Origin: Candidatus Eiseniibacteriota bacterium
Lineage (GTDB): Bacteria; Eisenbacteria; RBG-16-71-46
NCBI GenBank assembly: GCA_963707915.1
Contig: OY970178.1
Coordinates: 3,296,001-3,360,000 of the forward strand
Reading direction: 5' to 3'
DNA: 64,000 nt
Notes under the pieces: model-generated
Seen by the model: only the letters and a program-made list of their open reading frames with translations
Databases searched by the model: none
What the model was told of the DNA's origin: nothing
Shown here: positions 1,125 to 63,721 of the stretch, one piece after another
Position numbering within the stretch: the stretch's first letter is position 1
Layout: each line of letters starts with the position of its first letter
Program-made: the position numbers and the translations under genes

Positions 1125-1359
1125 CGACGTGACTCCGCGCGGGGGCGGGTCACGGGGGCGCTGCGAGCACATTCATATCATGCCCGTCTTCGGCCCTCGC
1201 AGCGCCCCGCAGGTCGCACGACGGGGCATGGCGGGAGAGCGAGTTCGCAACCCGGCTCGCGATCCCGTCTCCGCCCGGCAGACGGCGTCCTGCGAGCAGC
1301 GCGAACGCCCCGGCGATCGAAGCGCATCGCGAGCCCCGAAACCTGTCAAGCGAAATCGG

Positions 1360-2732: not shown

Positions 2733-2772
2733 GGTGGTCCAGACCGGGGGCGCCGCCGCCAGTCGGCCCCGG

Positions 2773-4227: not shown

Positions 4228-4560
4228 GCCGCAGAAAGTGGGGGAGGCGCGCGTGGCTGTCAATCGGTCGGGTCACGGCGGCGGGGCGTCCGGCCGCGGA
4301 CTTGCCGCGCCGGTGCTCTCACCCTGCACGGCGGCGCCGAACGCGGATATGATCCCGGCTGGCGGGGCGCATCGCCCCGCGGTCCATCGGGTTGCCTGCG
4401 CGACGCCGCCCGGCGGCCCGGCGCGGACAACGCGGGATTCACGACTCCTTGACCGCCGCCGGCCCGGGTCGTTTCAGGAACGGGCGCCCGCGGCCTTAGA
4501 CTTGACGCCGGTGCTCCGATGACTCCCCGTCCCGAAGACGACTCTCGAAAGGTGTCCTGG

Positions 4561-6216: not shown

Positions 6217-6233
6217 CCCGCGGCGCCGCAGCG

Positions 6234-6270
6234 GACGAAGCCCCGGTCGTCGTCCGACCGGGGCTTCGTC
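6234..6270. terminator. Hairpin between convergent genes (probable bidirectional terminator)
   Basis: GACGAAGCCCCGGTCG-N5-CGACCGGGGCTTCGTC, a perfect 16-bp stem. Confidence 0.65.
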
Positions 6271-6307
6271 ATGACGCGTCCGCCCGGGCGCGGGCGCCGG
6301 CGCCGGC

Positions 6308-7147
6308 CTAGTGCCGGGGTGGCTCGAGCTCGGTCGCGGGCGTCCGGCCCTGCAGGCGTCTCACCTGCACGCGGTCGCCCGCGCCGATACCCAGGCGCGT
6401 GGCGCAATCGCCGCCGACCTGCGCGAACTCGAGCCGCCCGCTCGAGCCCACCACGGCCACCATCGTGCCCAGCGCGTGCTCGCCATAGGAGCGCGCGAGG
6501 CCGCGGATCGTGTGGTCGAGCACCCGCACCTCGAGTTCCGGCTCGGACCGGTCGGGGAAGGCGCGCGCCAGGTCCTCGGCATCGATGTTCGTGAGCGCGT
6601 TGCCGAAGTGGTCCACGAACATGACGCAACCCAGGATCCCGTCGGGGCGGAACTCGGGCGCGGCGTGCGGCAGCCGCACCACGTCGCTGGTCTCGGGGCC
6701 CAGGCGATCGGGCGCCACTCCGCCGGCGAGGTGCGCGGCGACCGGCGCGAAGACGTCGCGGGCATGGAAGGTGCGCGAGACCGGCTGGCGGAACCAGCGC
6801 GCGCCGGTCAGGTGCCAGGCCCGGGCGTCCGGGTCTCGCAGCGCCCACTCGAGGATCCCGTTGTCGGGCCCGACGAAGACCTGCCCCCGCGCCGCCACGG
6901 CCAGTGCGCGACGCGCGGTGCCGACCCCGGGGTCCACGACCGCGAGGTGCACCGTGCCCGCGGGGAAATCGGGCGCGGCCGCCTCGAGCAGGAAGGCCGC
7001 GCGGGCGACGTGGCCGGGCGGGATGTCGTGCGTGAGGTCCACGATGTGGGCCTCGGGGCAGAGCTGGTAGAGGACGCCATGCACGACGCCCACGAACCAG
7101 TCCTTGCGGCCGAAGTCCGAGGTGAAGGTGATGATGGGACGTGCCAT
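6308..7147 (-). CDS. SAM hydroxide adenosyltransferase / chlorinase-fluorinase family (DUF62)
   Basis: ITFTSDFG, VVDPGVGT, GPDNG, TFHARDVFAP and DHFGN motifs. Confidence 0.92.
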   Translation of the reverse strand: MARPIITFTSDFGRKDWFVGVVHGVLYQLCPEAHIVDLTHDIPPGHVARAAFLLEAAAPDFPAGTVHLAVVDPGVGTARRALAVAARGQVFVGPDNGILEWALRDPDARAWHLTGARWFRQPVSRTFHARDVFAPVAAHLAGGVAPDRLGPETSDVVRLPHAAPEFRPDGILGCVMFVDHFGNALTNIDAEDLARAFPDRSEPELEVRVLDHTIRGLARSYGEHALGTMVAVVGSSGRLEFAQVGGDCATRLGIGAGDRVQVRRLQGRTPATELEPPRH

Positions 7148-7366
7148 GGCGAGCGACCTCCAGGGTGGCGCTGCTGCCGCCAATGTAGCCCATCCCGCCG
7201 CCGCCCTGCACGCGGTCCCGGCGGGGCGCGGAGATGTCCGGGAGTTGTCCAATCGACCGCGGCCGGCGCGGGCGCCGGGCCCATTCGCTGTTGGAGGCCC
7301 TTCGCGGCCCGTGCTACCATTTCGGTCCTGTCGAAGTTCCCGCTGACCCGAGAAGGAGTGGATCCC

Positions 7367-8008
7367 GTGAAGCGACTGATGATGATCCTGGTGTGCCTGG
7401 GCCTCTCGGCCGTGACGGTCGCGCCGGTGCGCGCCCAGGGCAGCGCCGGCGCTCCGGCGGTCGAGAAGACCTCCGTCGCCGCGACGCCGGTGGATTCCCT
7501 GGCGCTGCTCGAGAAGGCGGTCGCGAAGGATTCGACGCAGTTCGAGGACCTCTACCGGCTGGGCGTGATGTACCTGGACCGCGACAAGCCCTTCGCTGCC
7601 ATCACCGTGCTGACCCGGGCGCACGTGCTGCGGCCGAAGGATCACCGTGTCAGCGTCAACCTGGGCGTCGCCCACGACGCCGCCGGCCGGCCGGCCCCGG
7701 CGCAGGCCTACTACCGTGACGCGCTCGCGCAGTTCCCGGAGGATTCGGTGGCGTCGTGCCGGCTGGCGAGCTCGCTCTACTCGCAGTCCAAGCATGCCCA
7801 GGCCGTCGCGCTGCTGCAGGAGATCATCCAGAAGGCCCCGCGGGCCTACTGCGCGTACTTCACGCTCGGCGTGGCCTTCGCGGACGCCGGCATCTACAAG
7901 GACGCCATCCGGATGTGGCGGAAGGTCATCGAGCTCGCGCCCGCCTCGCCCGAGGCCAGCAGCGCCCGCGAGAGCGTGGACGTGCTGGAGAAGTTCGTCG
8001 CCCAGTAG
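7367..8008 (+). CDS. Secreted tetratricopeptide repeat protein
   Basis: GTG start after AGAAGGAG, signal peptide, TPR-like repeats (LGVMY, NLGVAH, TLGVAF). Confidence 0.8.
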   Translation: MKRLMMILVCLGLSAVTVAPVRAQGSAGAPAVEKTSVAATPVDSLALLEKAVAKDSTQFEDLYRLGVMYLDRDKPFAAITVLTRAHVLRPKDHRVSVNLGVAHDAAGRPAPAQAYYRDALAQFPEDSVASCRLASSLYSQSKHAQAVALLQEIIQKAPRAYCAYFTLGVAFADAGIYKDAIRMWRKVIELAPASPEASSARESVDVLEKFVAQ

Positions 8009-8142
8009 GTCCTGCGCGGCCAGGTGCCGGTGGCCCGCCTGCGGACGGGCCCCGGCACCGGGCTCGCGCGTCGGCTCCCTCCGGTCCGGCCCGCCCGCCC
8101 GCTCGCCTTGCCTGGCCGCCCTCCCGGGGGCACTCTGACGCC

Positions 8143-20921: not shown

Positions 20922-21007
20922 GGAGGGATGGCCGAGTGGTTGAAGGCGGCGGTCTTGAAAACCGCTGAGCGAAAGCTCCGTGGGTTCGAATCCTACTCCC
21001 TCCGCCA
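20922..21007 (+). tRNA. tRNA-Ser (TGA)
   Basis: Cloverleaf with GCGGT-CTTGAAA-ACCGC anticodon arm, long variable arm, GTTCGAATC, GCCA end. Confidence 0.95.
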
Positions 21008-21014
21008 GTTGTCT

Positions 21015-21106
21015 GGAGAGGTGGCCGAGTGGCTGAAGGCAGCCGCCTGCTAAGCGGTTGACTGGGTAAAACCGGTCCGGAGGTTCGAATCCTCTCCTCT
21101 CCGCCA
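21015..21106 (+). tRNA. tRNA-Ser (GCT)
   Basis: GCCGC-CTGCTAA-GCGGT anticodon arm, long variable arm, CCA end. Confidence 0.95.
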
Positions 21107-21129
21107 GTAACGGGTACAGCAGCAAGCGT

Positions 21130-21206
21130 GCGCCCTTAGCTCAATTGGATAGAGCATCTGACTACGGATCAGAAGGTTGGGGGTTCAAATCCTCCAGGGC
21201 GCGCCA
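21130..21206 (+). tRNA. tRNA-Arg (ACG)
   Basis: TCTGA-CTACGGA-TCAGA anticodon arm, GTTCAAATC, CCA end. Confidence 0.95.
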
Positions 21207-22580: not shown

Positions 22581-23256
<676 letters not shown>

Positions 23257-23490
23257 CCCAAGAGCTCCGGGCAAGGGCTGAGGAGTTGGCCGTGACCGTT
23301 GTGGAGCTCTCGCCGGCGACGATCCGCGAGCGCGTGGTTGGGAACCCGAGGGCGACGAAGATCGACGTAGCCGAAGCGCTCACCGGCGATCGATTCCCCC
23401 AGCCTCGAGCACTGCTTCCTCAGCGCCCGACTAGTCCCGCGCTGGGGCTACGGCCGCGGGACAAGAACTGGCTGCACATGTTTTGCTGGC
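23257..23490 (+). pseudogene. 3' remnant of a RuvC-like gene homologous to 61516-62025
   Basis: QELRARAEEL...VVGNPRATKIDVAEAL...LGLRP..K.WLHMF matches the product of 61690..62025. Confidence 0.85.
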
Positions 23491-51108: not shown

Positions 51109-51483
51109 CTCACAGGAGAGTTTGGGCCAAGCGAATACATGTCGCCCCCGTGGGTTACGACCCGCGGGGGCGATCTTGTGTCTTGGCAGATCTGGGCGCC
51201 TTGGGGAGCGTTCGGGCAGCCGAAGGAACCGCAGAATGGGACAAGAACGGTGACAAGAATCAGAGATCACTTGCGCCGCGATCGACGGCCGTGCGCTAGG
51301 CCGGGTGCCCGGCGTTCGTCGAGGACTCGGGGCATGGGATTCCGGCGGGTGGCGTCTTCTGGTGGTCACGGATGGACACGAGAGAACAGCGAAGGACCCG
51401 TTAGGCCGCCAAAGTAGCAACCATTTGGTAGCCAGAATCCGGCTACCAGAGCAGCGGTCTAGGCGACCGCGTGGCCGCAACCC

Positions 51484-51511
51484 TTGACGAGCCCGCTGGG
51501 GGGTGTATGCT
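51484..51511 (+). promoter_or_regulatory. Sigma70-like promoter of the lexA-like gene
   Basis: TTGACG-N16-TATGCT, about 10 nt before ATG 51522. Confidence 0.5.
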
Positions 51512-51521
51512 GCTGTATGCG

Positions 51522-52154
51522 ATGACTCTCCGACCTCTCACCCCCAAGGAATTCCAAGCTCTCCGGCACATCCGGAACTGCCTGGCACATGGCCAACCCG
51601 CGCCCACCGTTCGCGAGCTAAAGGACCTGCTGGAGTACCGGTCACCACGCTCCGCGGCGGTAATTCTGGAGCGGCTTGCTGCCCATGGGTTCATCCGCCG
51701 CCGTCCGGATGGCCAGCTCCAGCTGCTCCGCGATCTGCCGGAGGGAGCCGCCCATGCGCGTACCGTGCCCGTGCCGCTCGTGGGCGCGATCGCCTGCGGC
51801 GCGCCGCTTCTGGCCGAACAGAACATCGAGGCGATGATTCCGGTCTCGCTCTCTCTCGCCCGTCCGCCGCACAACTACTTCATGCTTCGCGCGAAAGGCA
51901 ACTCTATGAACCGCGCGGGCATCCAGGATGGTGATCTCGTGCTCGTCCGACAGCAGCCAACTGCCCAGGACGGCGACCGGGTGGTCGCCCTGATCGATGA
52001 CGAGGCTACGGTCAAGGTGCTGCGACGAGCGGGCGATGCGATTGCTCTCGAACCGCGTTCAACGAACAAGCGGCACGAGCCCATCCTCGTGACTACGGAT
52101 TTTCAGGTCCAGGGCGTTGTCGTCGGAACTATTCGTGCCCCGCGTATGAGGTAA
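51522..52154 (+). CDS. LexA-like repressor (wHTH + S24 autopeptidase)
   Basis: PTVREL...L...GFI, VGAIACG cleavage loop, GNSM (Ser) and ATVK (Lys). Confidence 0.9.
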   Translation: MTLRPLTPKEFQALRHIRNCLAHGQPAPTVRELKDLLEYRSPRSAAVILERLAAHGFIRRRPDGQLQLLRDLPEGAAHARTVPVPLVGAIACGAPLLAEQNIEAMIPVSLSLARPPHNYFMLRAKGNSMNRAGIQDGDLVLVRQQPTAQDGDRVVALIDDEATVKVLRRAGDAIALEPRSTNKRHEPILVTTDFQVQGVVVGTIRAPRMR

Positions 52155-52163
52155 TCTTGCACC

Positions 52164-53036
52164 ATGGCCATTTCCGAACAACAACTCGCGAGCTGGGCCA
52201 AGGGGCCGGGTGCCACCGAGCAGGAGCGTTGCGACACGACTGTGCGCCGCATCACTGAGGCCCTGCGTCCGTTCTACGGTAGCCGAGTGACCATCTTCCC
52301 GCAGGGCTCGTATCGGAACCGGACGAACGTGCGGCAGGACAGTGATGTAGACGTGGCGGTGGTCGAGAGCTCCGCCTACATTGGCGATACGTCGCGGATG
52401 GGACCTGAGGCTTTGGCGCGGTGGAACGCGATGTCTCCAGCCAGCTACACATTCGCGCAGTTGAAGGCGGACGTGCACCAACAACTCACCGCCGCCTTCG
52501 GGCCACGTGTTGAACGCCGTAATAAGTGCATCTTCGTACCTGAGACCGCCAGCGGCGTTGACGGTGACGTTGTCCCCGCCTTCGAGTACCGGCTGTTCGA
52601 CTACAACGGCTACAAGACGGCCAGCGGCATCGCTTTCTACGCTGACCGGGGCGGATTGTTCACCAGCTTTCCGCAGCAGCACTACGATAACGGGGTGGCG
52701 AAGAACGACCGGACGCAGCGGATGTACAAGCGAGCGGTGCGCATCCTCAAGAATGCTCGGAACACCCTCGTAGAGAACGGGCAGCTGGGGGACACGTTCG
52801 CGCCGTCATTCTTCCTTGAATGCCTTACGTACAACGCGGCCGACCGAGTGTTCTTGGCAAGCACCTATACCCAAAGCATCAAGCAGGTGATCGAGGACCT
52901 TTGGGAAGCAACCAAGCCCAGTCGCAGCGGGAGCCTCGTGGAAGTTAGCGAAGTGAAGCCGCTCTTCACGGCCGAGCACACCGCGGACGAGGCACGCACG
53001 TTCCTGCGAACCGCCTACACGTTCATCGGGTTCTGA
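52164..53036 (+). CDS. cGAS/DncV-like nucleotidyltransferase (CdnE-like), second copy
   Basis: QGSYRNRTNVRQDSDVDV, DVVPAF, FPQQHYDNG..KN, PSFFLECL.YN. Confidence 0.9.
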   Translation: MAISEQQLASWAKGPGATEQERCDTTVRRITEALRPFYGSRVTIFPQGSYRNRTNVRQDSDVDVAVVESSAYIGDTSRMGPEALARWNAMSPASYTFAQLKADVHQQLTAAFGPRVERRNKCIFVPETASGVDGDVVPAFEYRLFDYNGYKTASGIAFYADRGGLFTSFPQQHYDNGVAKNDRTQRMYKRAVRILKNARNTLVENGQLGDTFAPSFFLECLTYNAADRVFLASTYTQSIKQVIEDLWEATKPSRSGSLVEVSEVKPLFTAEHTADEARTFLRTAYTFIGF

Positions 53037-53038
53037 GC

Positions 53039-53668
53039 ATGGGCATTCAACTCCATCGCGCAAGCCATTTCGTCCTCTTCATCTTAGTGCTGCCGCTCCT
53101 CAGCTTGGCGTTGGCTTGGGAATGCAGCCGAGTCGTGGCGATGGTGGTTCCCCCTGGCTGGGCATTTGCCGTCGATTCGGTCGGCACGATCGGCGCCTAC
53201 GGTCTTCTGTTCAAGGCCTTTGACCTCTGGCTTTGGCGGTGGCCGGCCTTTCGCTCCCTGGGCATCGTTCAGCCCCCTCTCATGGCAGGCCGGTGGGTCG
53301 GTTCATTGCGTTCCTCCCATGACAATCATGAGACCCGCCACGAGGCCGTGGTGGAAGTACGCCAGAGCTTCACTTCTGTGCGCGTGGCCATGTACTTCGC
53401 GGGCTCGCGATCGGCCAGCCTGATCGCGGGGTTTGCGCAGGAGGCGGATGGTGGCGTGGCGCTCCACTACGAGTACCAGAACGTGCCGTCCGTTGATGCT
53501 TCGCGGACCATGCACATTCACTACGGCACGGCCACGCTCCAGTGCGTCCCGGGACGGCCGCGGATGGAGGGGCACTACTACAACTGGGGACGTGACGAGA
53601 GAGGGCACTACGGAGTGATGGAGTTCTCCTTCGAGAGCGCTAAACTACTGGGCCGGTTCTCCCAGTGA
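53039..53668 (+). CDS. CBASS 2TM + beta-barrel effector (Cap15-like)
   Basis: Two N-terminal TM helices, LWRW, GRW.G.L.S, YEYQN.P, HYG, GHYY. Confidence 0.8.
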   Translation: MGIQLHRASHFVLFILVLPLLSLALAWECSRVVAMVVPPGWAFAVDSVGTIGAYGLLFKAFDLWLWRWPAFRSLGIVQPPLMAGRWVGSLRSSHDNHETRHEAVVEVRQSFTSVRVAMYFAGSRSASLIAGFAQEADGGVALHYEYQNVPSVDASRTMHIHYGTATLQCVPGRPRMEGHYYNWGRDERGHYGVMEFSFESAKLLGRFSQ

Positions 53669-53722
53669 CGCTCACGAACTGAGTCCACAACGCATTAACT
53701 AACTAAGAGAAGGAGATAACGT

Positions 53723-53980
53723 ATGGACACGCAGGACAAAGTAAAGACCGTCACGATCATCGTGGAAGGCACTCCGCACGAGTGGCCCAAGGGTGAGATC
53801 ACCTACGCGGAGGTCGTCACTCTTGAAGTGCCGGACTACGCGCAGCACCCGGAGATCACGTACTCGGTGACCTACAAGCGCGGGCACGGCGAGAAGCCCG
53901 AAGGGATTCTCGTGAAAGGCGGCTCGGTCAAGGTAAAGGACGGGATGATCTTCCGTGTTTCAGAAACTGGTCAGTCATAA
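53723..53980 (+). CDS. Ubiquitin-like (multiubiquitin domain) protein
   Basis: AAGGAG RBS; TIIVEG..HEW..ITYAEVV..YSVTY..G.L..G.SVKVKDGMIF.V..TGQS. Confidence 0.8.
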   Translation: MDTQDKVKTVTIIVEGTPHEWPKGEITYAEVVTLEVPDYAQHPEITYSVTYKRGHGEKPEGILVKGGSVKVKDGMIFRVSETGQS

Positions 53981-55142
53981 CGACGACTTGGGTCGTTTGG
54001 TCGACAAGGGTTATGCCGTCGGCTTCGACCCGGGGCTTCTGATTGTTCGTGATATCCCGTACCTGGATGACCAGAAACGACTGCAGATTGGTGCGATTGT
54101 CGCGAAGCTGGTTCTCATCGACGACGACCGAGTCAGCCAGGACGATCACCAGATCTACTTCGCTGGCTCTGCCCCTTGCGACGTCAACGGCTCGGCGATC
54201 CCCAATCTCGCTGGCGGCTCCGCCAGCATCCCGATGAGCGACGCAAACAAGGACGTGGTCGTTCAGCGGTCGTTCTCTAACAAGCCTCGTGCCACGGGGA
54301 AGTTCGACAACTTCTTCGACAAGATCGAGAGCTACGTAGCGATCATTTCGGGTCCAGCCATGGAGCTGTACCCCGATGCGACTCCCTTTACGTTCCACGT
54401 CGTGACGACCTATCCCGGGTCGGTATTCAAGTTCCACGACACCCTTACAAGCAGAGCTGAAATCGGAGATCTGTCCGGGAGGTTCAAGGACGACATCATC
54501 GCGGTCATTGGACTTGGTGGCACCGGCGCGTACCTGCTGGATCTTCTGACGAAGACGCAGGTGCGCGAGATCCGCGCGTTCGACCACGACCACTTCTACG
54601 TGCATAACGCCTTCCGGTCTCCAGGGCGACTTCAATCAGGAGAACTCGGAAGGCTGAAAGCGGACGTGTACCGGGACCGCTACGACTCGTTTCGAACCGG
54701 GCTCTCGATCGAGAGGAGACTGATTGACGCCTCCTCGGTGGACGCGTTGGACGGCGTGACCTTCGCGTTCGTGTGCGTCGACAAGGGCTCGTCGCGGGCG
54801 GGCGTATTCGATGCCCTTCTTTCCAAGCGCATCCCGTTCATTGACGTCGGGATGGGCCTGAAACGCAGAGACGGCAGCCTGAACGGAATGCTGCGCGTCA
54901 CCTACTTCTCGTCGGAGGATGGTGGGCAGGTGCGCGCGAAGGGACTCGCTGAACTGGCCGACACGCCGGACGACCTCTATCGAACCAACATCCAGACCAG
55001 CGAGTTGAACGCGCTGAACGCTGCCTTGGCCGTCGTGAAGTTCAAGAAGCTCCGAGGCTTCTACTTCGAGGAAACGCCCTACTACCATCTTCTCCACGAC
55101 GTTGGAGACTCCACGATGGTCGGGGAATCGGAGCTGACATGA
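53955..55142 (+). CDS. DUF6791-like N-terminal domain fused to ThiF/E1 adenylation domain
   Basis: IAVIGLGGTG, FDHD...HNAFRSPG, FVCVD, FIDVGMG, NIQTSELNA. Confidence 0.85.
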   Translation: MFQKLVSHNDDLGRLVDKGYAVGFDPGLLIVRDIPYLDDQKRLQIGAIVAKLVLIDDDRVSQDDHQIYFAGSAPCDVNGSAIPNLAGGSASIPMSDANKDVVVQRSFSNKPRATGKFDNFFDKIESYVAIISGPAMELYPDATPFTFHVVTTYPGSVFKFHDTLTSRAEIGDLSGRFKDDIIAVIGLGGTGAYLLDLLTKTQVREIRAFDHDHFYVHNAFRSPGRLQSGELGRLKADVYRDRYDSFRTGLSIERRLIDASSVDALDGVTFAFVCVDKGSSRAGVFDALLSKRIPFIDVGMGLKRRDGSLNGMLRVTYFSSEDGGQVRAKGLAELADTPDDLYRTNIQTSELNALNAALAVVKFKKLRGFYFEETPYYHLLHDVGDSTMVGESELT

Positions 55143-55540
55143 GGTTCAGGCTCCAGCGAGTTGAGTACATGCCCAAGACCCTGGAGCCGGGGGTCCTGTA
55201 CGTCTCAGAAGCTTTCGGCACAGCAGCGCACCTCTGCGCCTGCGGTTGCGGCTCCAAGATCAGGACACCACTCGGCCCCACTGAGTGGCACGTCGAGGTT
55301 ACGAAGCGGGGACCAAGCCTGTATCCCTCCGTCGGGAACTGGCAGAAGCCCTGTCAGTCGCACTACTGGATTCGCGAGGGCAACGTGCGGTGGGCAGCGA
55401 AATGGACATCGGAGGAGATTGCCACGGGTCGCAGGCACGAGGAGGAACGCCGACACGCGTACTACGACTCCGGTCGTCCAGCGCCCGGGAATATCCTGGC
55501 GAGATTCTGGTGCTGGCTGAAGCGTCTGCTTGCTCGCTGA
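55139..55540 (+). CDS. DUF6527-like protein
   Basis: LEPGVLYVS, HLCACGCG, SLYPSVGNW..PC.SHYWI. Confidence 0.8.
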   Translation: MRFRLQRVEYMPKTLEPGVLYVSEAFGTAAHLCACGCGSKIRTPLGPTEWHVEVTKRGPSLYPSVGNWQKPCQSHYWIREGNVRWAAKWTSEEIATGRRHEEERRHAYYDSGRPAPGNILARFWCWLKRLLAR

Positions 55541-55584
55541 CCCAGCTTGTCCACAGAAGGTGCCACTCTAGTGTCGTACCCCCT

Positions 55585-55704
55585 CTAGGCAGCTTCGCTG
55601 CTTCGTGGCACACTGACTTCACCCTTGAGCCGGTCGAGCTTCGGCAGCGGAATCCACGCGTGTTTCTTGAGCCAAGTTCGAACGTCGTCCCTCATGGCGC
55701 ACCA
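55585..55704 (-). repeat. Recombinase-tail repeat copy A
   Basis: Encodes WCAMRDDVRTWLKKHAWIPLPKLDRLKGEVSVPRSSEAA*, homologous to the recombinase C-terminus. Confidence 0.9.
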
Positions 55705-55747
55705 GCGTCGTTTTGGTGCATCCACCCCCACGAAAAGTGGATAACGA

Positions 55748-55783
55748 GCAGACCGACCGCCAATCAAGGCGGTTTTGTTGTTT
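55748..55783 (+). terminator. Intrinsic terminator-like hairpin with T-tract
   Basis: ACCGCC-AATCAA-GGCGGT followed by TTTGTTGTTT. Confidence 0.55.
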
Positions 55784-56007
55784 GCGGTAGGGGGGTGGAC
55801 GTGACAACAGAGACGCGAAACGGTGAGTTATACCCAGAAGCGAGGACGTTCGAACTCGCGGCAAGAGTTCGAAGCGACTACTTGACCAGCCCCTGAGGAC
55901 ATGGTTGGGTGACTAAGTGGATTGTTCGTTTCGCACAACATTCAATTCGTTCCTCCCTTGCCTGATGCTCGCACGCATGGTGTGCGCAGCAGTCCAGGGG
56001 AGGAACG

Positions 56008-56274
56008 ATGCGCAGGTTGCGGTTGCTTCCGATAACGTTCGGGCCGTCCTATGAGGTCGCACCGACCCCCGGCACGAAAGCTGCTGCCACCTGTACGGTC
56101 GTCGTCGCGGCGGTCGTGCTGGTAGCGGTTGCAGTTGCCGTGGTGAGATGGCCGTGGGTCGCCATGCTCGCAGGTGCCGTGGCCGCATTCACCTGGGGAC
56201 GGAAACACTACGGTGGTGACGCAATCATCGTGGGTATCGTGCTCCTTGTCGCGGGGTTGTCTCTGCTGAGGTAG
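56008..56274 (+). CDS. Small membrane protein
   Basis: GGGGAGGA RBS and 2-3 hydrophobic segments. Confidence 0.55.
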   Translation: MRRLRLLPITFGPSYEVAPTPGTKAAATCTVVVAAVVLVAVAVAVVRWPWVAMLAGAVAAFTWGRKHYGGDAIIVGIVLLVAGLSLLR

Positions 56275-56366
56275 GTGCAATCGCACCTTCCAGAGTTATC
56301 GCTCGCGGGTCGATCTCTTCGGAGTTCGACCCGCTTCTTCTTGTCTCATCAACTCAGATGACGGCC

Positions 56367-56585
56367 ATGGAACATGACCAACGTTTTGCTCTGGGGCTGA
56401 CCCAGGCTGAGGTGGATCGACTGCGCGACATTATCCATCGGACTCGTGGCGTCACGTTATCGGAGCAAGAAGCGTGGGTGTGTGCAATCCGGCTTCTCAG
56501 TCTCGGACTGACGACTCTGAAAGCGACCGCGCCGAAGGAAGACATCCACAAGGATGAGACATGCGTGGTGCGTCCGCCCCTCTAG
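56367..56585 (+). CDS. Small protein homologous to 59226-59432
   Basis: Shares QRFALGLT.AEVDRLRDI..RTRG..L...EAW..AI.LLSLG with the gene upstream of the recombinase. Confidence 0.8.
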   Translation: MEHDQRFALGLTQAEVDRLRDIIHRTRGVTLSEQEAWVCAIRLLSLGLTTLKATAPKEDIHKDETCVVRPPL

Positions 56586-56701
56586 GCAGCAACGCCTTTT
56601 CGTGGCAAACTATCTTCGCTCTTCAAACGATCAAGCTTGGGCAGCGGAAACCATGGAGTTTTCTTGAGCCAGGTTCGAACGTCCTCCACGATGGAGCACC
56701 A
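56582..56701 (-). repeat. Recombinase-tail repeat copy B
   Basis: Encodes WCSIVEDVRTWLKKTPWFPLPKLDRLKSEDSLPRKGVAA*. Confidence 0.9.
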
Positions 56702-56767
56702 AGAACGAATCTTCGAACAAAAACACAAATCCAGCTTGATTCCATTAATCAGAGCTGAGTTCGAACT

Positions 56768-57631
56768 ATGAGACACAAGTTTCCAGACAACTTTGTAACT
56801 ATTGGCCATTTTGGCTTAGAGCAGCATTACTCAAAACATGCTCCACACGACATTCTTACAAAGTTACGCCATACATTAGGTTCCCTGATTGGATCTGAAG
56901 GAGACGTGGTGTATGTTTTTATCCTCATAAGAAAGCTTCTAGAGTTAGATAAACATAAACGAGTCTTTCCGACGTTGTCGCTGATATGTGATTGGATAGC
57001 ACATGTGCGGCTCGATAGAAATAGCACTGGTTACAAAATCATCGAGAATATAGATCGGGAACTCTATTTCAAATACGCCGTGCTTGATAAACGACCGTAT
57101 GATCGGAATAGGACAAAAGCACAGGAGCGGCATATAGAACGTCAACTTGCGGGCTTATGGACATTGCGTGGCGAGTTGAGATTCTTCTTACGCCATTATC
57201 ATCTCCCGATTACGATTGTAAATAAAACCCCATCATGGAACCGATTACGTCGTTTTCTGTTTAATGCTCTCGCGAATAGTCCCCTCACAGTTCAAACAGC
57301 TGACGATCTATTAGTAATAAAAAGCATCTCATTCACTTCTGTTTGGCACGAAGCTCAACCCCAATCATCCAGGGCAAGAAATCTATTTAACGATCCGCCA
57401 TACCCCAGATGTAGAATTCTAGTTAAGGATGGGATAATGCTGCCAGGAACTGAGCATATGAATCCAGAAGATGAGCAGATTATAGAGGTCTCATTAAAGA
57501 CTGTAGACATTCGCGACTTTATTTCCGAGGAGGAGTTTGTTAAACTTCAAAAGACGATGAAGGATCTTCCAGAACATTTCTTCAAAGACGATCCCAAAAC
57601 TACCGGAACCACCCGAACCAAATCATCTTAG
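56768..57631 (+). CDS. AT-rich hypothetical protein
   Basis: 287-aa ORF, much lower GC than its neighbours; IRKLLE...CDWIAH motif. Confidence 0.75.
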   Translation: MRHKFPDNFVTIGHFGLEQHYSKHAPHDILTKLRHTLGSLIGSEGDVVYVFILIRKLLELDKHKRVFPTLSLICDWIAHVRLDRNSTGYKIIENIDRELYFKYAVLDKRPYDRNRTKAQERHIERQLAGLWTLRGELRFFLRHYHLPITIVNKTPSWNRLRRFLFNALANSPLTVQTADDLLVIKSISFTSVWHEAQPQSSRARNLFNDPPYPRCRILVKDGIMLPGTEHMNPEDEQIIEVSLKTVDIRDFISEEEFVKLQKTMKDLPEHFFKDDPKTTGTTRTKSS

Positions 57632-59187
57632 CTTTCAACGAGACGATCCAACCGAGGTAGTGGCAACCACTTATCTTTCTTTAACCAAGTTCGAACGTCG
57701 TCCCTTAAGGCGCACCAATTGCTAATGAGCCCTTGTCCTTCGATGAAGGAGAAGGGTTCGTTGGCTTTGTAGAGCGGTTCCTTGCCTTCGACCGCGAAGT
57801 TCGAAGCGACGGCCTGGACAATTTCCCGTCGTTGAACTCCGACCCCGCGCTCGAAGGCCGCCGCGCAGCGGTTCGTGAACTGGAAGAGCTCGGTCGCGCG
57901 CTGGAGGTACTCCTCCGGCTCGGTCGGCGGAACCTCGAGCTGCAGCTTGAGCTTTGCCTGTCGCTCCAAGATCTCAAGCCTTCGCTTCTCGAAGAGGTCC
58001 TCGTCTACCTGCCCGCGCAGCCGAAGCGTGAGCAGCGTTTCGCCCTCACGCAGGGACGCGCCGAGGGCCTCCTGGAGCGAGCGGTGTGAGGCTGTGTCGG
58101 TCACGGTCTCCGCCTCCAAAGTGTGCTTCAGGTTCTCCGTCACCCATCCGACCACTTCCTCCGGCACGGCCACGGCATGCAGGGTCTTCTGGATCGCCGT
58201 CTCGAAGTCCGGCTCCGGAATGCAGGTCGCATGCGGACAGGGCGTGCTTCTCCCAAGGCCATGACAGCGGTAGTACACGTAGGTTCGACCTGACTGCTTG
58301 CGGTGCTGCTCGCCGGTCAGAAGTCCGCCACACTTGCAACGCAGTAGCCCGCCGTAGGGGAACTCGTGACGCGCCGGGCGGGCGCGCCCTGGCCGACCAA
58401 GGATACCGGCCGCACGCTCGAACTCCGCCGGGGTGACCATCGGCTCATGGCCGCCGCGGTAGCTCTCACCGCTGCGCAGCTGGATGAGCCCCATGTAGTA
58501 GGGATTCTGGAACATCCGGTAGAGCATCGTGATGCACATCGGCCGGCCGCCCAGTCGCGCCGTCTTGCGCGTGCGGAAGCCCCACTCCTCGGTTGCCAGC
58601 TTGAGGATCTGCTTGGGGCGGAGGCTATCGGTGAGCACGAGGTCCCACATCTTGCGCACGAGCGTGAACCGCTCGGGGTCTTTCACGACGGTCTTGGTCG
58701 CATGGTCCTCGATGTACCCCAGGGGCGGGCGGAAGTTCGGCCAGCCGCGCTGGAACCGCGCACGGTTGCCGCGCCGCACGTTTTGCCGCAGATCGTCGAT
58801 GAACTTGGTGGCGATGCCGAGCTCGAAGTTGCCCATGAAGCGGTCATTGCCGTCAGCGGTGTACGTCCGATCCGAGGTGATGACGGTGAGCTTGTGGTCG
58901 GCCAGCGCTTGCAGGACCCGGCCGGTGTCGGCGTGGTTGCGCGCCAGCCGGTCGAGCTTCCAGCACAGCACGGTCGCGATCTCGCCCTGGGACACGCGGC
59001 GCATCAGTTGATCGAAGACCACGCGGCCCGGAGCTTTAGCCGAGCGCGACTCGGAGAGGATCTCCGCGACCTGGTGCCCATGGCGCAGCGCCAGGAGTTT
59101 GAGCTCTTGGACTTGGGAGTCGATGGAGAGGACCTGCCGATCCTCGGATTCGCTGGATTTCCTAGCGTAGATGACACATTGCGGCAT
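57628..59187 (-). CDS. Large serine recombinase
   Basis: IYARKSSE (catalytic Ser), ESRSAK, WKLDRLARN, PPLGY, NPYY.G, HEP, Zn ribbon CKCG...YYRC, coiled coil. Confidence 0.95.
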   Translation of the reverse strand: MPQCVIYARKSSESEDRQVLSIDSQVQELKLLALRHGHQVAEILSESRSAKAPGRVVFDQLMRRVSQGEIATVLCWKLDRLARNHADTGRVLQALADHKLTVITSDRTYTADGNDRFMGNFELGIATKFIDDLRQNVRRGNRARFQRGWPNFRPPLGYIEDHATKTVVKDPERFTLVRKMWDLVLTDSLRPKQILKLATEEWGFRTRKTARLGGRPMCITMLYRMFQNPYYMGLIQLRSGESYRGGHEPMVTPAEFERAAGILGRPGRARPARHEFPYGGLLRCKCGGLLTGEQHRKQSGRTYVYYRCHGLGRSTPCPHATCIPEPDFETAIQKTLHAVAVPEEVVGWVTENLKHTLEAETVTDTASHRSLQEALGASLREGETLLTLRLRGQVDEDLFEKRRLEILERQAKLKLQLEVPPTEPEEYLQRATELFQFTNRCAAAFERGVGVQRREIVQAVASNFAVEGKEPLYKANEPFSFIEGQGLISNWCALRDDVRTWLKKDKWLPLPRLDRLVES

Positions 59188-59225
59188 AGAGGTCTAGGTA
59201 GTGATGCCTCAAGTTCGAAACGCAG

Positions 59226-59432
59226 TCAAGAGGGAGGACCTTCGAACTCGCGGGGTTTCCTTGAAGAGGTGGCCTGGAGGATGGTCCAGCCGAGGGAGAG
59301 AAGTTGAATCGCCTTGGCCCACGCCTCCTCGCGCGTGAGCTCCAGCCCGCGCGTGCGCCGCAAGATGTCGCGGAGGCGGTCCACCTCCGCTTCGGTCAGG
59401 CCAAGCGCGAAGCGTTGCGTTCGAGCATCCAT
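59226..59432 (-). CDS. Small protein upstream of the recombinase (candidate accessory or directionality factor)
   Basis: 68-aa ORF with a paralogue at 56367-56585, which supports coding status. Confidence 0.75.
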   Translation of the reverse strand: MDARTQRFALGLTEAEVDRLRDILRRTRGLELTREEAWAKAIQLLSLGWTILQATSSRKPREFEGPPS

Positions 59433-59596
59433 GCAACCATGATCGCGCAGGAGTAGCGACCGGCGTAGGGGGGAGGACGTCCACAGGGCGAGCTTCGCTG
59501 TGCATAGCGACAATCGAATCCCTCTTCCACAGACATGCACAGTTTGCGCACCTCCACCCCCCTACAACGATTCCCTGGCAGGACTATCGTGGAAGC

Positions 59597-59878
59597 ATGT
59601 TGGTGCAATACACCAAGCGAACGTGGCGAAACCGGCCGCGCTTCCCCAACAAGATCCGCGAGTACCGCCTCAAGGCCGGCATCTCGCAGAGCAAGCTCGC
59701 CGCCCTGCTCGGCCGCGGCCGCAACGCGGTCTCGTCCTGGGAGCGTGGACTGTCGCTGCCAAACGTGCCGCGTCTCCTACGCATGGCGAAGATCCTCGGC
59801 ACACTCTCCGAGGCGCTCTACTTCCAGTTCTACTCCACCCAGGGAGCAGATGGTGAGCTCAGCGGCACTGCGGCATGA
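59597..59878 (+). CDS. XRE-family HTH regulator
   Basis: NKIREYRLKAGISQSKLAALLG.....VSSWERG...P. Confidence 0.88.
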   Translation: MLVQYTKRTWRNRPRFPNKIREYRLKAGISQSKLAALLGRGRNAVSSWERGLSLPNVPRLLRMAKILGTLSEALYFQFYSTQGADGELSGTAA

Positions 59879-60360
59879 GGGAGCGTCTCTTGCGCTGGTT
59901 CATGGCCCACGCCAACGGTCGCGGCGTGGTGCTGGGCCGAAGCGAGGTCATGGAGGCGGAGCTGGACGCAGCGTCTGACGTGCTTCAACAGGAGCTCACA
60001 GCATTGGAGCGGGAGGGAGTCGTCGAGATCATCGCCCCGCTACCGTTCCTTGTCCTTCGACTCAAGAAATGGTCTGGCAGGGGCCAACAAAGCACCTTTG
60101 CCTATAGCTCTCTGCTATCAAACAATCAATTGATTGAAAGCAACAGCCATAGGCACGATCCACTCCTCCACGAGATCCTCGAGACACTCGGGGAGACGGA
60201 CGTGAAGGCGTTCGCCCCGGTGCTCGAGCACTACTCCCCGCAGATCATTCGCACCGCTCTGAGAAGGGTCCGCCGCGCCCGCGGCATCCGGAAGAGCCGC
60301 ACCGCGCTCTTTCGCCACCTGCTCCCGCGACTCGCGCAAGCCGAACCCGAGCGCAACTAG
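59875..60360 (+). CDS. wHTH protein with C-terminal IRKSRTALF motif
   Basis: ATGA overlap with the XRE gene; L..LEREGVVEI wing; paralogous to the next gene. Confidence 0.65.
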   Translation: MRERLLRWFMAHANGRGVVLGRSEVMEAELDAASDVLQQELTALEREGVVEIIAPLPFLVLRLKKWSGRGQQSTFAYSSLLSNNQLIESNSHRHDPLLHEILETLGETDVKAFAPVLEHYSPQIIRTALRRVRRARGIRKSRTALFRHLLPRLAQAEPERN

Positions 60361-60368
60361 CCCTCCCC

Positions 60369-60899
60369 ATGTCCTCGCTCCAACCCATCACCCTTACCCT
60401 CGATCGCCGCATCCTCGAGCATCCGCGGGCCTACCACCTGCGACGCATGCGCGCGGGACTCTGGCTCTACCTCGACCTCTTGGCCCGGCTCCCGGCCGAC
60501 GCTGAGACGTTCGAGGTGGAGCCCGCGGCGGTCGGGCGGGACATGGGGCTCCCGGAGGGCACGGTCCGCTCCTGGCTCGGGCACCTGCGAAAGGCCGGCT
60601 ACCTCGACGCCGTGCGCCTCAACGGCAAGGTCCGGGTGACGATCAAACGGGCCGCAGCGCCGGAGACCCCGGCAGAACCCCCGACGCCGACACGCTTCTT
60701 CACGGTCGCCAAGCTCCAGCGAGCGCTCGGCGAGCCGGGCAACGCCGAGGCCTTCGAGGCCGCGCTCAGCCTCTACCCGGACGACGGTCGTGAAGCGCGC
60801 CCTCGCCGGCACGCTGGCGGTGCCCGAGACCCAGATCCGTCGCTCACGCACCGCGCTCTTTCTTTACCTCCTACAACACGCCATGCCCAAGAAGACTGA
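60369..60899 (+). CDS. wHTH protein with C-terminal IRRSRTALF motif (frameshift ~60787)
   Basis: LWLYLDLL, VGRDMGLPEGTVRSWLGHLRKAGYL; C-terminal motif lies in the alternative frame. Confidence 0.7.
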   Translation: MSSLQPITLTLDRRILEHPRAYHLRRMRAGLWLYLDLLARLPADAETFEVEPAAVGRDMGLPEGTVRSWLGHLRKAGYLDAVRLNGKVRVTIKRAAAPETPAEPPTPTRFFTVAKLQRALGEPGNAEAFEAALSLYPDDGREARPRRHAGGARDPDPSLTHRALSLPPTTRHAQED

Positions 60900-61400
60900 C
60901 ACCATCCTCGCCCTCGATCCCGGTCTCCGCGACCTCGGCTACGCCGTGCTCCACGGCCGCCGCCTCGTGGCCAGCGGCGTGCTCGCGCTGCGGCGCGTCC
61001 CGAAGGCAGAACGTCTCGCGCACAGCGCGCAAGCACGTGCGCACGTGGCTGCGAACGCACCGTCCGCAGCGTCTGGTCGTCGAGAAGACCTACCGCCATC
61101 CGGTGCCGTGGCTCGATCGAGCTCCACCGGCTCACGCGCAGGCCCGGAACCTCGCCACCCGCCAGCACACCGCCTTCGCCATGTACTCGCCGCAGACGCG
61201 TCCGCGCGACCGTCGCCGGCAACGGCAAGGCCAAGAAGCCCGAGGTCGCCATCGCCGTCGCGCATCCGCTTCCCGCAGCTCCGGGTCTACCTCACGCAGG
61301 ACCGGCGCTGGAAGGAAGCGTACTGGCAGAACATGTTCGACGCGTCGCGCTGGCGCTCCATCACCAAGCAGCGACGCAACCGCCCTCCCGCAGCCGGTGA
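60883..61400 (+). CDS. RuvC-like RNase H-fold nuclease 1 (multiple frameshifts)
   Basis: ILALDPGLRDLGYAV, LVVEK, GNGKAKK.EVA, YWQNMFDA. Confidence 0.7.
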
Positions 61401-61515
61401 TCCGGCCGACCCTGGCGCCTCCGCCTTGCCGAGCGCCACTGTCTCGGAAGGGGTCCGCAAGGGACCTCCGACGAGCAGCCCTCGGGAGGGCATTTGATTC
61501 ACTACACACTCACCC

Positions 61516-62025
61516 ATGAACACACCAAGACCATCCTCGGCATCGACCCCGGCACGAAGGAGATGGGCATCGCCGTGCTTCGCGGCCGAAAGCTGCTCGC
61601 GTACGGCGTGCACACGCTCCGCAACGGCGAGCGGCCCTACGACGTGATCGGCCAGGCCCGGCGGGTCGTCTTGGAGTACCTCGAGCGCTATGCCCCGGAG
61701 GTGGTGGCGATCGAGGCGCCGCTGCATGTTGCCGACCAAGCGCGCGGCGATCCTCTCGGTCATCGCGCAGGAGCTGCGACAGAGGGCGAATGAACTCGGC
61801 CTCGAGGTCCTTGAGCTCACGCCGCAGGAGGTGCGGCAGCGGGTAGTCGGGAACCCGCGCGCGACCAAGATTGACGTCGCGGAGGCGCTGGTGGCACGGG
61901 GGTTCGAGGAGCTCAAGGATCTTGTGCCAAAGCGACCGACCCGGGCAGCCTTGGGACTCAGGCCGGGCCAGAAGTACTGGCTCCACATGTTCGATGCGCT
62001 GGGGCTCGCTTGGGCCATCACCTGA
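61516..62025 (+). CDS. RuvC-like RNase H-fold nuclease 2 (frameshifted)
   Basis: ILGIDPGTKEMGIAV, VAIE, GNPRATKIDVA, HMFDALGLA. Confidence 0.75.
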
Positions 62026-62281
62026 GTGCCCCCACGTGCAGCGCGCGAATGACCTATTGCGGCAGAGCACGATTGCGACTAGTGTACAGTCGTATACGGT
62101 TTGCTCTCAGCCCACTTTGTCGGGATCCGCTGCGCCCCCTATGCCTAAGGGCAACCCTAGTGATCTCACGAGCAACGAGGGCCGCCATGCCTGGTTGCGT
62201 CAGTCCCTTCATGGTTGCGCTCACGCCCTCTAGCCGGGCGGTGGACCGAGTTACGGCGAGCGGCCCGGAGGTTCCCCACCC

Positions 62282-63721
62282 ATGAGCACCGTGATGCTCG
62301 TCGACCTGCCTTACGCGCGCGGCGAGTACAACGAGCCGCTGGCGGTTGAGTTTTTGGCTGCGCAGTTAGTCGAGCGCACGGGGGCAACTACCGCAATCCT
62401 CGCCTTAGATCGGGGCTTCTCGGCCTCCGTCCTGACCGAGGCCATTCTGACTCTGAGGCCGGATCTTGTCGCGCTGTCCACGAAGCTCGATAGTATCACG
62501 CTGCTCCCCGAAGTTGGCGACGCGGTGCGGCGCAGCGGAATCAGATGCAGTGTGGTCATCGGTGGCATCGCTGCGACAATTGCACCAACCGAAACATTGG
62601 CGGCGCTAGGAATGCCTGAGGCAATCTGTGTTGTTGGAGAAGGCGAGGATGTCCTGTGTCAGGTCGTCCTCGGACTCGGTGCGGAAGGCCCAACGGATGG
62701 CGGGGAGAGTACCCCCTTGGGGCCCAACAGAGTCATCGGATCACCGCCCTCTTCCAGGTACCCACTCAGCATGCCCGCCGACCGGAGTTTGCTTGGCCGT
62801 ACCATCGCCTCGCGCGGCATCGCGCGTTGCGAAGCAAGCAGAGGTTGTCCGTGGGGCAAGTGCACTTTTTGCGTCATCGGGCGGAAGTACGGTGCGACCA
62901 CTTGGCGACCCCGTCCCCCAATCAGAGTAGTAGAAGAACTTGACCGAATTGCCGCGATGGGGGTGGAGATGGTGTACTTCACCGACGAGGACTTCATCGG
63001 CGGTGATGCCGAACGCGCGCTGTGGATTGCTGAACATGTACTAGAGCGCAAGGCCGAGGGACGCATCCCCGAGACCTTCCGACTTTGGTGTTCGACTAGC
63101 GTGCTGAACATCCTCGGTCGCTATGACGACCCTGCACGCGTTCGCGCGGCACTCGTCAGGCTCAAGACCGCCGGACTCGCGGGTGTGTTCCTCGGCGTCG
63201 AATCGGGTAGCCCCACCCAACTCAAGCGCTATGCAAAGGGTGCAACCGTCGCCCAGAACGAAATGGCCCTCTGCATACTTGAGGAGATGGGGTTGGAAGC
63301 GGACGTCGGCTTCATCATGTTCGACCCCTTTGTTACCATCGAGGAGCTTGCGGAGAACACGGCCTTTATTCGCCGAACCAGTCTCAAGGATGGGTTCTCT
63401 CGCTTGGGGAAGCCGGTTCGGCTCACGCCGTATACGAGCCTTACGTCCCGTGCGATACGGCATGGGCTTTGTCGAAGTCAACTCTCCATTGATACGCTAT
63501 CGTACCCGTACCACTTCGCTGACGCACGCACCGCGGCGGTCTTCGAAGAGTTCTCGACTTGGGAGCAACGCACGGCACCTCGGGCCTATGACCTCCAATC
63601 GGTTCTTCGCGCAAACGGCTACACCACCGAGGGCGCATATAAAGCCAGGAGCGACCTCGTGGCAATGCGTAGGGAGCAGCTCGACAAACTCGCTGAGCTT
63701 ATCGAGCTGGCCAAGCGCTAG
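62282..63721 (+). CDS. B12-binding domain radical SAM protein
   Basis: GGIAAT, VGEGE, ASRGCPWGKCTFC, FTDEDF, GVESGS...L, GFIMFDP. Confidence 0.88.
   Translation: MSTVMLVDLPYARGEYNEPLAVEFLAAQLVERTGATTAILALDRGFSASVLTEAILTLRPDLVALSTKLDSITLLPEVGDAVRRSGIRCSVVIGGIAATIAPTETLAALGMPEAICVVGEGEDVLCQVVLGLGAEGPTDGGESTPLGPNRVIGSPPSSRYPLSMPADRSLLGRTIASRGIARCEASRGCPWGKCTFCVIGRKYGATTWRPRPPIRVVEELDRIAAMGVEMVYFTDEDFIGGDAERALWIAEHVLERKAEGRIPETFRLWCSTSVLNILGRYDDPARVRAALVRLKTAGLAGVFLGVESGSPTQLKRYAKGATVAQNEMALCILEEMGLEADVGFIMFDPFVTIEELAENTAFIRRTSLKDGFSRLGKPVRLTPYTSLTSRAIRHGLCRSQLSIDTLSYPYHFADARTAAVFEEFSTWEQRTAPRAYDLQSVLRANGYTTEGAYKARSDLVAMRREQLDKLAELIELAKR

Follow-up and report, generated by a model that had tools for sequence, protein, structure and literature searches.

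Staphylococcal and enterococcal cassette chromosome (SCC) elements are moved by large serine recombinases (CcrAB or CcrC), lack capsid and type IV secretion genes, and carry variable cargo together with attachment regions repeated in series; tycheposons, in turn, are linked to tRNA. The early modules of temperate phages set a replication organiser akin to DnaD or lambda O, the Red-beta and lambda Exo pair, and a RuvC or RusA resolvase beside an integrase and an XRE switch. In the defence hotspots of P2 phages and P4 satellites, a bay lies between conserved genes and unrelated defence systems replace one another within it (PMC9122126); pipolins are portrayed as a small constant core with a bay for exchangeable defence systems (PMC11551731), and tycheposons as cargo-carrying integrative elements (bioRxiv 10.1101/2020.12.28.424599). 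Here, we consider a 64,000-nucleotide stretch of the genome of a Candidatus Eiseniibacteriota bacterium (‘the window’; contig OY970178.1, positions 3,296,001 to 3,360,000), in which genes for a serine recombinase, an XRE-type repressor, two winged helix-turn-helix (wHTH) proteins and two RuvC-like nucleases stand together at 57628–62025. Our preferred reading, to which we assign a probability of roughly 60%, is that these six genes form the left arm of a family of integrative genomic islands with swappable anti-phage cargo, and that the copy in the window is a relic.

With the SCC elements the island shares each of the features given above; its recombinase is, however, distant from theirs (57.6 bits on the CcrB model, against a cut-off of 900), it targets tRNA or unknown sites rather than rlmH, and its backbone genes are different. 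Like the P2/P4 hotspots and the pipolins, it couples a small constant core to a defence bay between conserved genes, but the core is unrelated (no P2 or P4 genes, no PolB) and the host range differs. The likeness to tycheposons is one of description and not gene by gene. As for temperate-phage early modules, the same kinds of protein stand beside the integrase and XRE switch, and the PHROG families for a RuvC-like resolvase, an exonuclease and a DnaD-like loader are all matched by island proteins; the island departs from them in having its organiser and its resolvase each in duplicate, in carrying (in relatives) a coupling-protein-like ATPase, and in lacking morphogenesis, packaging and lysis genes among the open reading frames (ORFs) scanned.

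The kinship with temperate-phage early regions seen in the PHROG matches, the integrase and XRE switch, and a defence hotspot like those of P2 phages and P4 satellites (PMC9122126), would together suit a phage satellite or defective prophage, whose phage-like early genes replicate after induction of a helper that supplies the capsids. We regard this as improbable. No capsid, portal, terminase, tail, lysis or packaging gene was found among the Pfam-scanned ORFs at 42–64 kb of the window, in the next 36 kb of the contig or in the continuation of the intact relative L011; among 2.9 million viral contigs there was no relative (none of 18 candidate stretches), 50,697 phage records gave no close match and only two distant RuvC matches (27–35% identity), and relatives carry the coupling-protein-like ATPase instead. 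Of the features of phage satellites, an integrase and a repressor are present, with no primase, helicase or packaging gene among the ORFs scanned.

Nor were the relaxase, VirB4-type ATPase or coupling protein of an integrative and conjugative element found in the window. No conjugation gene was found among its Pfam-scanned ORFs at 42–64 kb, and no relaxase family in any of the ORFs scanned; six relatives carry just the coupling-protein-like ATPase, with weak TrwB and TraG matches. A HerA-like ATPase and a Replic_Relax protein do occur past the window’s end, at 86.5–89.2 kb in window-equivalent coordinates (which continue the window’s numbering along the contig), and they adjoin a different, tyrosine, integrase. 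The preliminary description of this DNA had remarked on the absence of phage structural and conjugation genes from the window; that holds for the ORFs scanned, but it is in part an effect of the window’s edge, as the element continues beyond it.

It had also raised the possibility of an undescribed class of mobile element. No described family was matched in the phage, plasmid, viral and literature searches: the plasmid collection returned only two distant RuvC matches, also at 27–35% identity, and the full-text literature searched, which has most subscription journals outside its scope, held no description of the module. All of the parts are nonetheless of known kinds and the plan is like that of known vehicles, and it is therefore not a new class; the island is apparently a mobile backbone of strong synteny, hitherto undescribed, assembled from familiar components.

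Synteny, cargo bay and conserved block

In the six-gene unit a minus-strand recombinase is followed, on the plus strand, by XRE, wHTH1, wHTH2, RuvC1 and RuvC2. A scan of one genome per species yielded 24 genome loci, 15 of which hold the whole left arm; of the remainder, five are short contigs that show a fitting part of it, three (L024–L026) are distantly related variants and one (L027) is fragmentary. When metagenomes were scanned with the RuvC1 family, at least 383 stretches came up, and 80 loci were retained. Where a locus reached far enough on the side in question, wHTH2 was present in 64 of 64, RuvC2 in 52 of 52, wHTH1 in 41 of 42 and XRE in 36 of 37, and the recombinase lay upstream on the opposite strand in 19 of 19. 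The six-gene module is thus supported as a real, strongly syntenic unit of a mobile element. All six genes are where the preliminary description had placed them, and the synteny in related genomes by which it proposed to judge them is borne out (the whole order in 15 of 24 genome loci, and near-universal in metagenome loci of sufficient length).

Nine of the 24 loci are labelled Eisenbacteria or Eiseniibacteriota; the others carry various labels, which may partly reflect binning. A RuvC2-type gene (E 1e-25 or better) was found in 11 of 206 genomes of the host’s phylum, at up to four places in one genome, and in none of the seven other genomes of the host’s genus. Several metagenome-assembled genomes (MAGs) hold two divergent copies, and the window genome has one copy of the module plus an orphan RuvC2 fragment. 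Eisenbacteria-labelled genomes, together with metagenomes of soil and sediment, account for most of the family.

What had looked like a compact module of about 4.4 kb is one arm of a larger island, with a cargo bay and a conserved block, most of which lies beyond the end of the window, 2 kb past RuvC2; the apparent compactness arises partly because the window’s edge cuts the element. The block, at window-equivalent 70.9–73.9 kb, matches DNA downstream of RuvC2 in many loci. In L011, where it is intact, it starts 55 bp past RuvC2 and encodes a protein of 246 amino acids (aa), a PD-(D/E)XK exonuclease (Pfam PDDEXK_1, 105 bits), RadC (143 bits) and a DUF932 protein (26.8 bits). The 246-aa protein is present in 11 of 11 metagenome loci with at least 7 kb downstream, and DUF932 in eight of 11 loci of sufficient length. 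The distance from RuvC2 to the block ranges from 55 bp to 8.9 kb in genome loci, with a similar spread in metagenome loci, and because the 246-aa gene stands at so variable a distance from RuvC2, the intervening stretch is taken as a cargo bay.

The contents of the bay include SPARTA (short Argonaute and TIR-APAZ) in L016 (11452–14458) and L021 (12944–15899), PDC-S19 in L012, a PDC-S60-like protein with a caspase in L010, an NB-ARC protein in L006 and IS21 in L020. Remnants of the 3′ end of RuvC2 lie inside three bays (L013, L016 and L021), in L016 and L021 beside the SPARTA pair, and a remnant of the 246-aa gene sits in the window genome’s own bay (window-equivalent 69330–69481), about 1.5 kb before the frameshifted full copy. 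Such remnants are what repeated replacement of cargo, through recombination at the edges of the bay, would leave. In the window genome the bay begins at 62026, runs through the window’s end at 64000 and on to about 70,964 (window-equivalent); by Pfam and the annotation of the downstream DNA it holds a B12-binding radical SAM protein as its first gene (62282–63721), then a methyltransferase, a short-chain dehydrogenase, a weakly NACHT-like protein of 785 aa, and unknowns.

The C-terminal domain of the 246-aa protein has as its best structural match the C-terminal domain of Red-beta (Z 8.9, root-mean-square deviation 2.5 over 62 aligned residues, and Z 8.3, deviation 1.6 over 59), the next entry scoring 6.2; going by the titles of those structure entries, the matched domain binds lambda exonuclease and SSB. 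A profile of the 246-aa family against solved structures returned chance-level rows only. The exonuclease gene overlaps the end of the 246-aa gene, and the most economical reading of the modelled structure would make the two a Red-type recombinase pair.

It could be argued that the six-gene unit is a small, autonomous integrative and replicative element, and that the downstream block and the ATPase arm (below) are either its neighbours or separate elements that use the same hotspot. No part of the family is more rigid than these six genes, L017 and L022 have no second block within 10 kb downstream, the exonuclease and RadC are absent from L019 and L020, and six of the 11 RuvC-arm genomes of the phylum have that arm only. 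Set against this, the 246-aa gene follows in all 11 of the metagenome loci just counted and in 12 genome loci, on the same strand and with only cargo between, and two copies within one MAG have both blocks in common and differ in the bay. An autonomous six-gene element therefore seems to us unlikely.

In relatives, the island extends further still. Four were extended by 20 kb each; all four extensions were compared with one another, and that of L011 was scanned for gene families. In all four, DUF932 is followed by a second variable stretch (more often than not with type I restriction-modification genes), a 236-aa protein, a 1044-aa ATPase, a short variable stretch and a second large serine recombinase with two HTH_3 domains; a membrane-protein candidate, the ATPase and the second recombinase keep the same order throughout. 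The ATPase has weak TrwB, TraG and HerA domain matches and is coupling-protein-like, and it also lies downstream of RuvC2, on the same strand, in two more genomes, making six relatives in all. Raised G+C in L011 ends some 2–3 kb past the second recombinase, giving an island of roughly 24 kb. Across the 206 phylum genomes the ATPase occurs in 13, five of which also have the RuvC arm, three of them with both arms on one contig and strand, 10–26 kb apart. The window genome has no homologue of the ATPase or of its small neighbour; the second recombinase has just a partial match to its HTH portion, at a distance of 95 kb, and one of 23% to the window’s own recombinase. Where relatives have the ATPase arm, it has an adenine methylase, a ParB-like protein, a PRTase-CE protein and a type I restriction system.

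The recombinase, the operon and their possible roles

The recombinase (57628–59187, minus strand) is an intact large serine recombinase, or integrase, of 519 aa; on its outer left side the conserved unit is bounded by the 3′ end of this gene. Pfam finds Resolvase (73.4 bits, cut-off 23.3) and Zn_ribbon_recom (28.2 bits, cut-off 25.3), with the Recombinase domain at 19.5 bits, slightly under its cut-off of 21.1; including that sub-cut-off match, the protein has the serine-integrase architecture of an N-terminal resolvase catalytic domain, a recombinase domain and a zinc ribbon. Its L011 orthologue matches the PHROG integrase family phrog_95 (E 3e-71).

In four of 26 complete genes the 3′ end of the recombinase runs antisense into a tRNA gene (Leu in L011 and L052, Asn in L014, Ala in L021), such that a Trp codon corresponds to the CCA end of the tRNA. 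Most of the other recombinases end in a conserved peptide, consisting of Trp, a few residues, Asp/Glu-Val/Leu-Arg-Thr-Trp, an aromatic residue and Pro-x-Leu (the window, L012, L019, L022, L047, L087, L089, L094, L104 and L108), and in the four that abut a tRNA it is this peptide that the antisense tRNA sequence replaces. Moreover, one MAG has two recombinase genes that are divergent elsewhere but best conserved, as DNA, at the 3′ end. These sequences lead us to infer a crossover site within the 3′ end of the recombinase gene itself.

In the window, repeats occur at the same place. The last ~26 codons of the recombinase form a repeat with a TTCGAA core (‘R’, 57640–57717; repeat-search family D1, 76–77% identity), of which direct copies lie at 55627–55704 and 56624–56701, so that three copies stand about 1 kb apart; the genome holds no further copy. 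An inverted, imperfect copy of the R core (‘S’, 59231–59253; repeat families D7 and I10) is found at the 3′ end of a small ORF upstream of the recombinase, with a second copy at 55839–55861, and a motif scan located S-like sites upstream of the recombinase in L011, L016 and L019. The small ORF (59226–59540, minus strand, from the ORF list; conserved part ~59226–59432) has relatives in five of the 24 genome loci (L008, L012, L020, L021 and L023) and no match in Pfam, PHROG or NCBIfam; its position makes it a candidate regulator or directionality factor. A paralog of it, 66.7% identical, lies at 56358–56585 on the plus strand, a placement that a single past inversion, between R and S and spanning the recombinase gene, could explain.

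One ~1-kb segment bracketed by R copies carries a 287-aa gene of only ~48% G+C (56768–57631). A related metagenome contig has the body of the recombinase joined at 57709 to a tail of the type found at 56.66 kb; as this junction skips the segment with the 287-aa gene, the segment is an insertion polymorphism, and the swap of tails is a sign that the intact recombinase may still act. A tRNA origin for the R and S repeats of the window was considered and dropped, an Rfam search at E up to 10 over 55000–62500 having given no tRNA-like match at either. Likewise, a search of the L011 genome for a repeat of its tRNA-Leu region, as a right end of the island, produced nothing convincing, and tRNA scans of the extended stretches of relatives marked no island end. 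In L008, about 7 kb (991–8034) separates the small ORF beside the recombinase from XRE, which suggests a further insertion point between recombinase and operon.

The operon opens, divergently from the recombinase, with the XRE-type repressor (59597–59878, plus strand; Pfam HTH_3 48.5 bits, with matches to PHROG transcriptional repressor families). The intact wHTH1 gene (161 aa; 59875–60360, plus strand) overlaps it by 4 nucleotides, and wHTH2 (60369–60882, plus strand) follows with one frame break near 60785–60790, placed from tblastn frames, and runs into RuvC1 without a stop; in intact relatives the end of wHTH2 overlaps the start of RuvC1 by 17–35 nucleotides. Alignment of the two family profiles with hhalign (probability 97.9%, E 6e-13, 141 columns) identifies wHTH1 and wHTH2 as paralogs at the level of sequence, and the C-terminal motif IR[KR]SRTALF.[HY]LL, which the preliminary description had picked out in both, is invariant or nearly so across the two families. 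The AlphaFold model of wHTH1 (pLDDT 73) has an N-terminal winged helix, a disordered linker and a four-helix C-terminal domain that ends in the IRKSRTALF motif.

As to function, several leads point weakly in one direction, towards a replication organiser. The Atlas places wHTH1 near clusters of Phage_rep_O, RepA_N, HTH_36 and DnaD_N (scores 0.91–0.94), and the L011 orthologue of wHTH2 matches, over the winged helix only, the DnaD-like helicase loader family phrog_186 (E 8e-6) and phrog_7498 (E 5e-5). None of the 123 relatives of wHTH1 in the protein collection has a Pfam domain, the pair has no NCBIfam match, and the wHTH1 family profile against solved structures gave chance-level rows only; nor did Foldseek return anything at E 0.001 or better for the wHTH1 model, whose C-terminal domain was unmatched. 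The suggestion in the preliminary description that the pair are replication initiator-like is plausible, and gains leads that are weak and mutually consistent (PHROG, HTH_36 and Atlas), sub-threshold as they are.

Inside the DNA that encodes the wHTH1 linker lies a pair of AT-rich near-palindromes (60099–60109 and 60145–60155; inverted repeat I4), which take the form AGCTATAGCT in relatives. One or two 10-bp palindromes of the AGCTATAGCT type occur at the matching place in eight of 16 loci scanned, the relatives concerned being L008, L010, L011, L013, L014, L016 and L022, and pairs are often 38–48 bp apart. The origin of lambda lies inside gene O, an arrangement that these palindromes recall, and they may be a binding site for a protein or a candidate origin.

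Of the two nuclease genes, RuvC1 (~60883–61400, plus strand) is a pseudogene in the window: tblastn recovers it as pieces in two frames, and a reading of all three frames against intact orthologues gives about six breaks. RuvC2 (61494–62025, plus strand; Pfam and tblastn) has one, near 61721–61730. The N-terminal piece of the window’s RuvC2 reaches 24.1 bits on Pfam RuvC (PF02075; cut-off 22.2) and the RuvC1 pieces have no match to that family, while in L011, where both genes are intact, RuvC1 reaches 43.6 bits and RuvC2 36.4 bits against the same cut-off. Profile and Foldseek searches, which the preliminary description had foreseen for each protein, served the two halves of the operon unequally, the RuvC2 family matching solved RuvC structures (E 1.4e-7) and wHTH1 only the generic winged helix. 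The paralogs share with bacterial RuvC, the Holliday junction resolvase, their fold family, length (165–175 aa) and catalytic positions; they differ from it in scoring 30–34 bits, far under the NCBIfam equivalog cut-offs of 100–163, and in being a fixed tandem pair on a mobile element, one of them with Asn in place of His or Asp. A ruvC gene of the host’s own lies elsewhere in the genome.

The acidic residues noted at the outset (the DPG aspartate, the glutamate and the MFDA aspartate) are indeed kept in both genes. Within the RuvC1 family D12, E67, N149 and D152 are invariant in 16 of 16 orthologues, and within the RuvC2 family D9, E65, H155 and D158 in 23 of 23 sequences; the third catalytic position is therefore Asn in RuvC1 versus His or Asp in RuvC2 and bacterial RuvC, and the set of Asp, Glu, Asp/His and Asp is complete in RuvC2 but not fully so in RuvC1. 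Changing the third catalytic residue of E. coli RuvC to Asn is reported to abolish cleavage and leave junction binding intact, and by analogy this would fit a dimer with one impaired site. A prediction of the RuvC1–RuvC2 complex scored 0.00 with its controls not run, and speaks neither for nor against the heterodimeric resolvase or nuclease put forward in the preliminary description, which is a plausible role for the pair.

A bolder proposal is that an asymmetric RuvC1–RuvC2 dimer, with one complete site and one bearing Asn for His, works with the wHTH pair as a site-specific DNA-processing machine, which would bind the palindromes in the wHTH1 gene, nick or resolve the excised circle, and either start replication or feed DNA to the coupling-protein-like ATPase in place of the missing relaxase. 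We offer this as a long shot; were it true, it would be a new way for the island to replicate or transfer. That the XRE, wHTH and RuvC genes are instead a defence or addiction system carried as cargo, with DNA sensors and nucleases outside the life cycle of the element, is very unlikely, for although the neighbourhood is rich in defence genes and pairs of nuclease and HTH proteins are common in defence systems (PADLOC models having been applied to the cargo genes alone), they are fixed beside the integrase while the true cargo varies, and the 70–85% identity of RuvC2 across hundreds of clusters (378 relatives of its C-terminal piece, many within that range) fits a backbone better than it does fast-evolving defence genes.

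Decay, proposed mechanism and setting of the window copy

Compared with intact orthologues, the backbone of the window copy has one frame break in wHTH2, at least three in RuvC1, one in RuvC2, two in the 246-aa gene, at least one in the exonuclease, one in RadC and two in DUF932. These add up to at least 11 across some 5 kb, with those of RuvC1 at 61020–61345 and those beyond the window at window-equivalent 71.1–73.8 kb. The recombinase, XRE and wHTH1 remain intact, as do the long ORFs of the cargo. The breaks do not fall at long homopolymers, and sequencing error at such runs was discarded as their cause, other assembly errors being possible. Near-identical metagenome contigs also have single-base indels in the RuvC1 tail, among them an extra base at the 61344 break. 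The frame breaks and the lack of the ATPase arm together fit a decaying, immobilised island, and by its sequence the window copy is best described as a relic that has probably lost most functions and still has its cargo and an intact recombinase.

Synthesising these observations, we propose a speculative scheme for how an intact member of the family might work. The recombinase would integrate and excise the island through a site in its own 3′ end, sometimes at tRNA genes, and XRE would silence the operon; after induction, the wHTH pair could bind the element’s DNA and, much as lambda O or DnaD does, organise its replication. Recombination, including that which swaps cargo at the edges of the bay, might be the work of the annealing protein and its exonuclease partner, and the RuvC pair would cut the branched DNA that results.

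A number of points weigh against this reading of the island, and they bear on each of its parts. For its ends, the R repeats of the window are not recognisable as pieces of tRNA, and the right end of the island was not found, no direct repeat of the tRNA marking it in L011. For its extent, the lack of a second block in L017 and L022 has been mentioned, and the arms are separable: among the phylum genomes six have the RuvC arm only, eight the ATPase only and five both, so that these may be two distinct elements, one for each arm, that are often neighbours. For replication, the matches behind the initiator reading of the wHTH pair are below threshold. Foldseek with the wHTH1 model gave generic winged-helix matches only (E 0.1), the Atlas rows share 117–154 features as against the 170 shared by nine of ten same-family matches, and the L011 orthologue of wHTH2 reaches 19.1 bits on Pfam HTH_36, under the cut-off of 25. 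No iterons were found near or in the wHTH genes, and neither a helicase, a primase, a polymerase nor any other replication protein turned up beyond the pair. The 246-aa protein is poorly modelled in its N-terminal domain (pLDDT ~60), which matched no annealing protein. For the window copy, the frame breaks could in principle be assembly errors, and the cargo in its bay may not be defence, PADLOC having given one weak methyltransferase match (mad2, E 2.7e-12) and nothing else on the genes of this bay.

The genome around this copy is one contig of 3.62 Mb with a G+C content of ~70%, and third codon positions in its core genes are ~97% G+C. From ~41 kb to the end of the window, and on to ~92 kb (window-equivalent), both overall and third-position G+C are lower, so that this copy of the island sits in a stretch of low third-position G+C relative to host genes. 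The low-G+C stretch ends at a separate module (window-equivalent 86.5–90.5 kb; contig ~3382500–3386540) that comprises the HerA-like ATPase and Replic_Relax protein, an HTH_17 excisionase, the tyrosine integrase and tRNA-Ser(cga), and which resembles small integrative elements of the actinomycete type.

To the left of the recombinase lies a defence island. At 51471–55540, a LexA-like S24 repressor comes first, then a CBASS-like pair of a weak SMODS-like nucleotidyltransferase and a Cap15-type effector, and after these a trio of multiubiquitin, E1-like (DUF6791-ThiF) and DUF6527 proteins; farther left are an AAA_15/21 ATPase, an HTH_17-helicase and a patatin. The orphan RuvC2-type remnant lies at 23256–23486 on the plus strand (the C-terminal 77 codons, 62–64% identical), adjoining a fragment of an IS3-type transposase (22729–23226), a tadA-like deaminase and three tRNA genes (20922–21206), and is probably a trace of an older element of the same family.

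Read as an integrative island with a swappable bay, the family would be a defined and widespread vehicle for anti-phage genes in Eisenbacteria and in other poorly studied lineages of soil and sediment. The conserved flanks of its bay could guide searches of metagenomes for new defence systems, an approach already taken with the P2/P4 hotspots, and a fixed RuvC tandem with one altered catalytic position, beside a pair of wHTH paralogs, makes for an unusual backbone that invites biochemical study.

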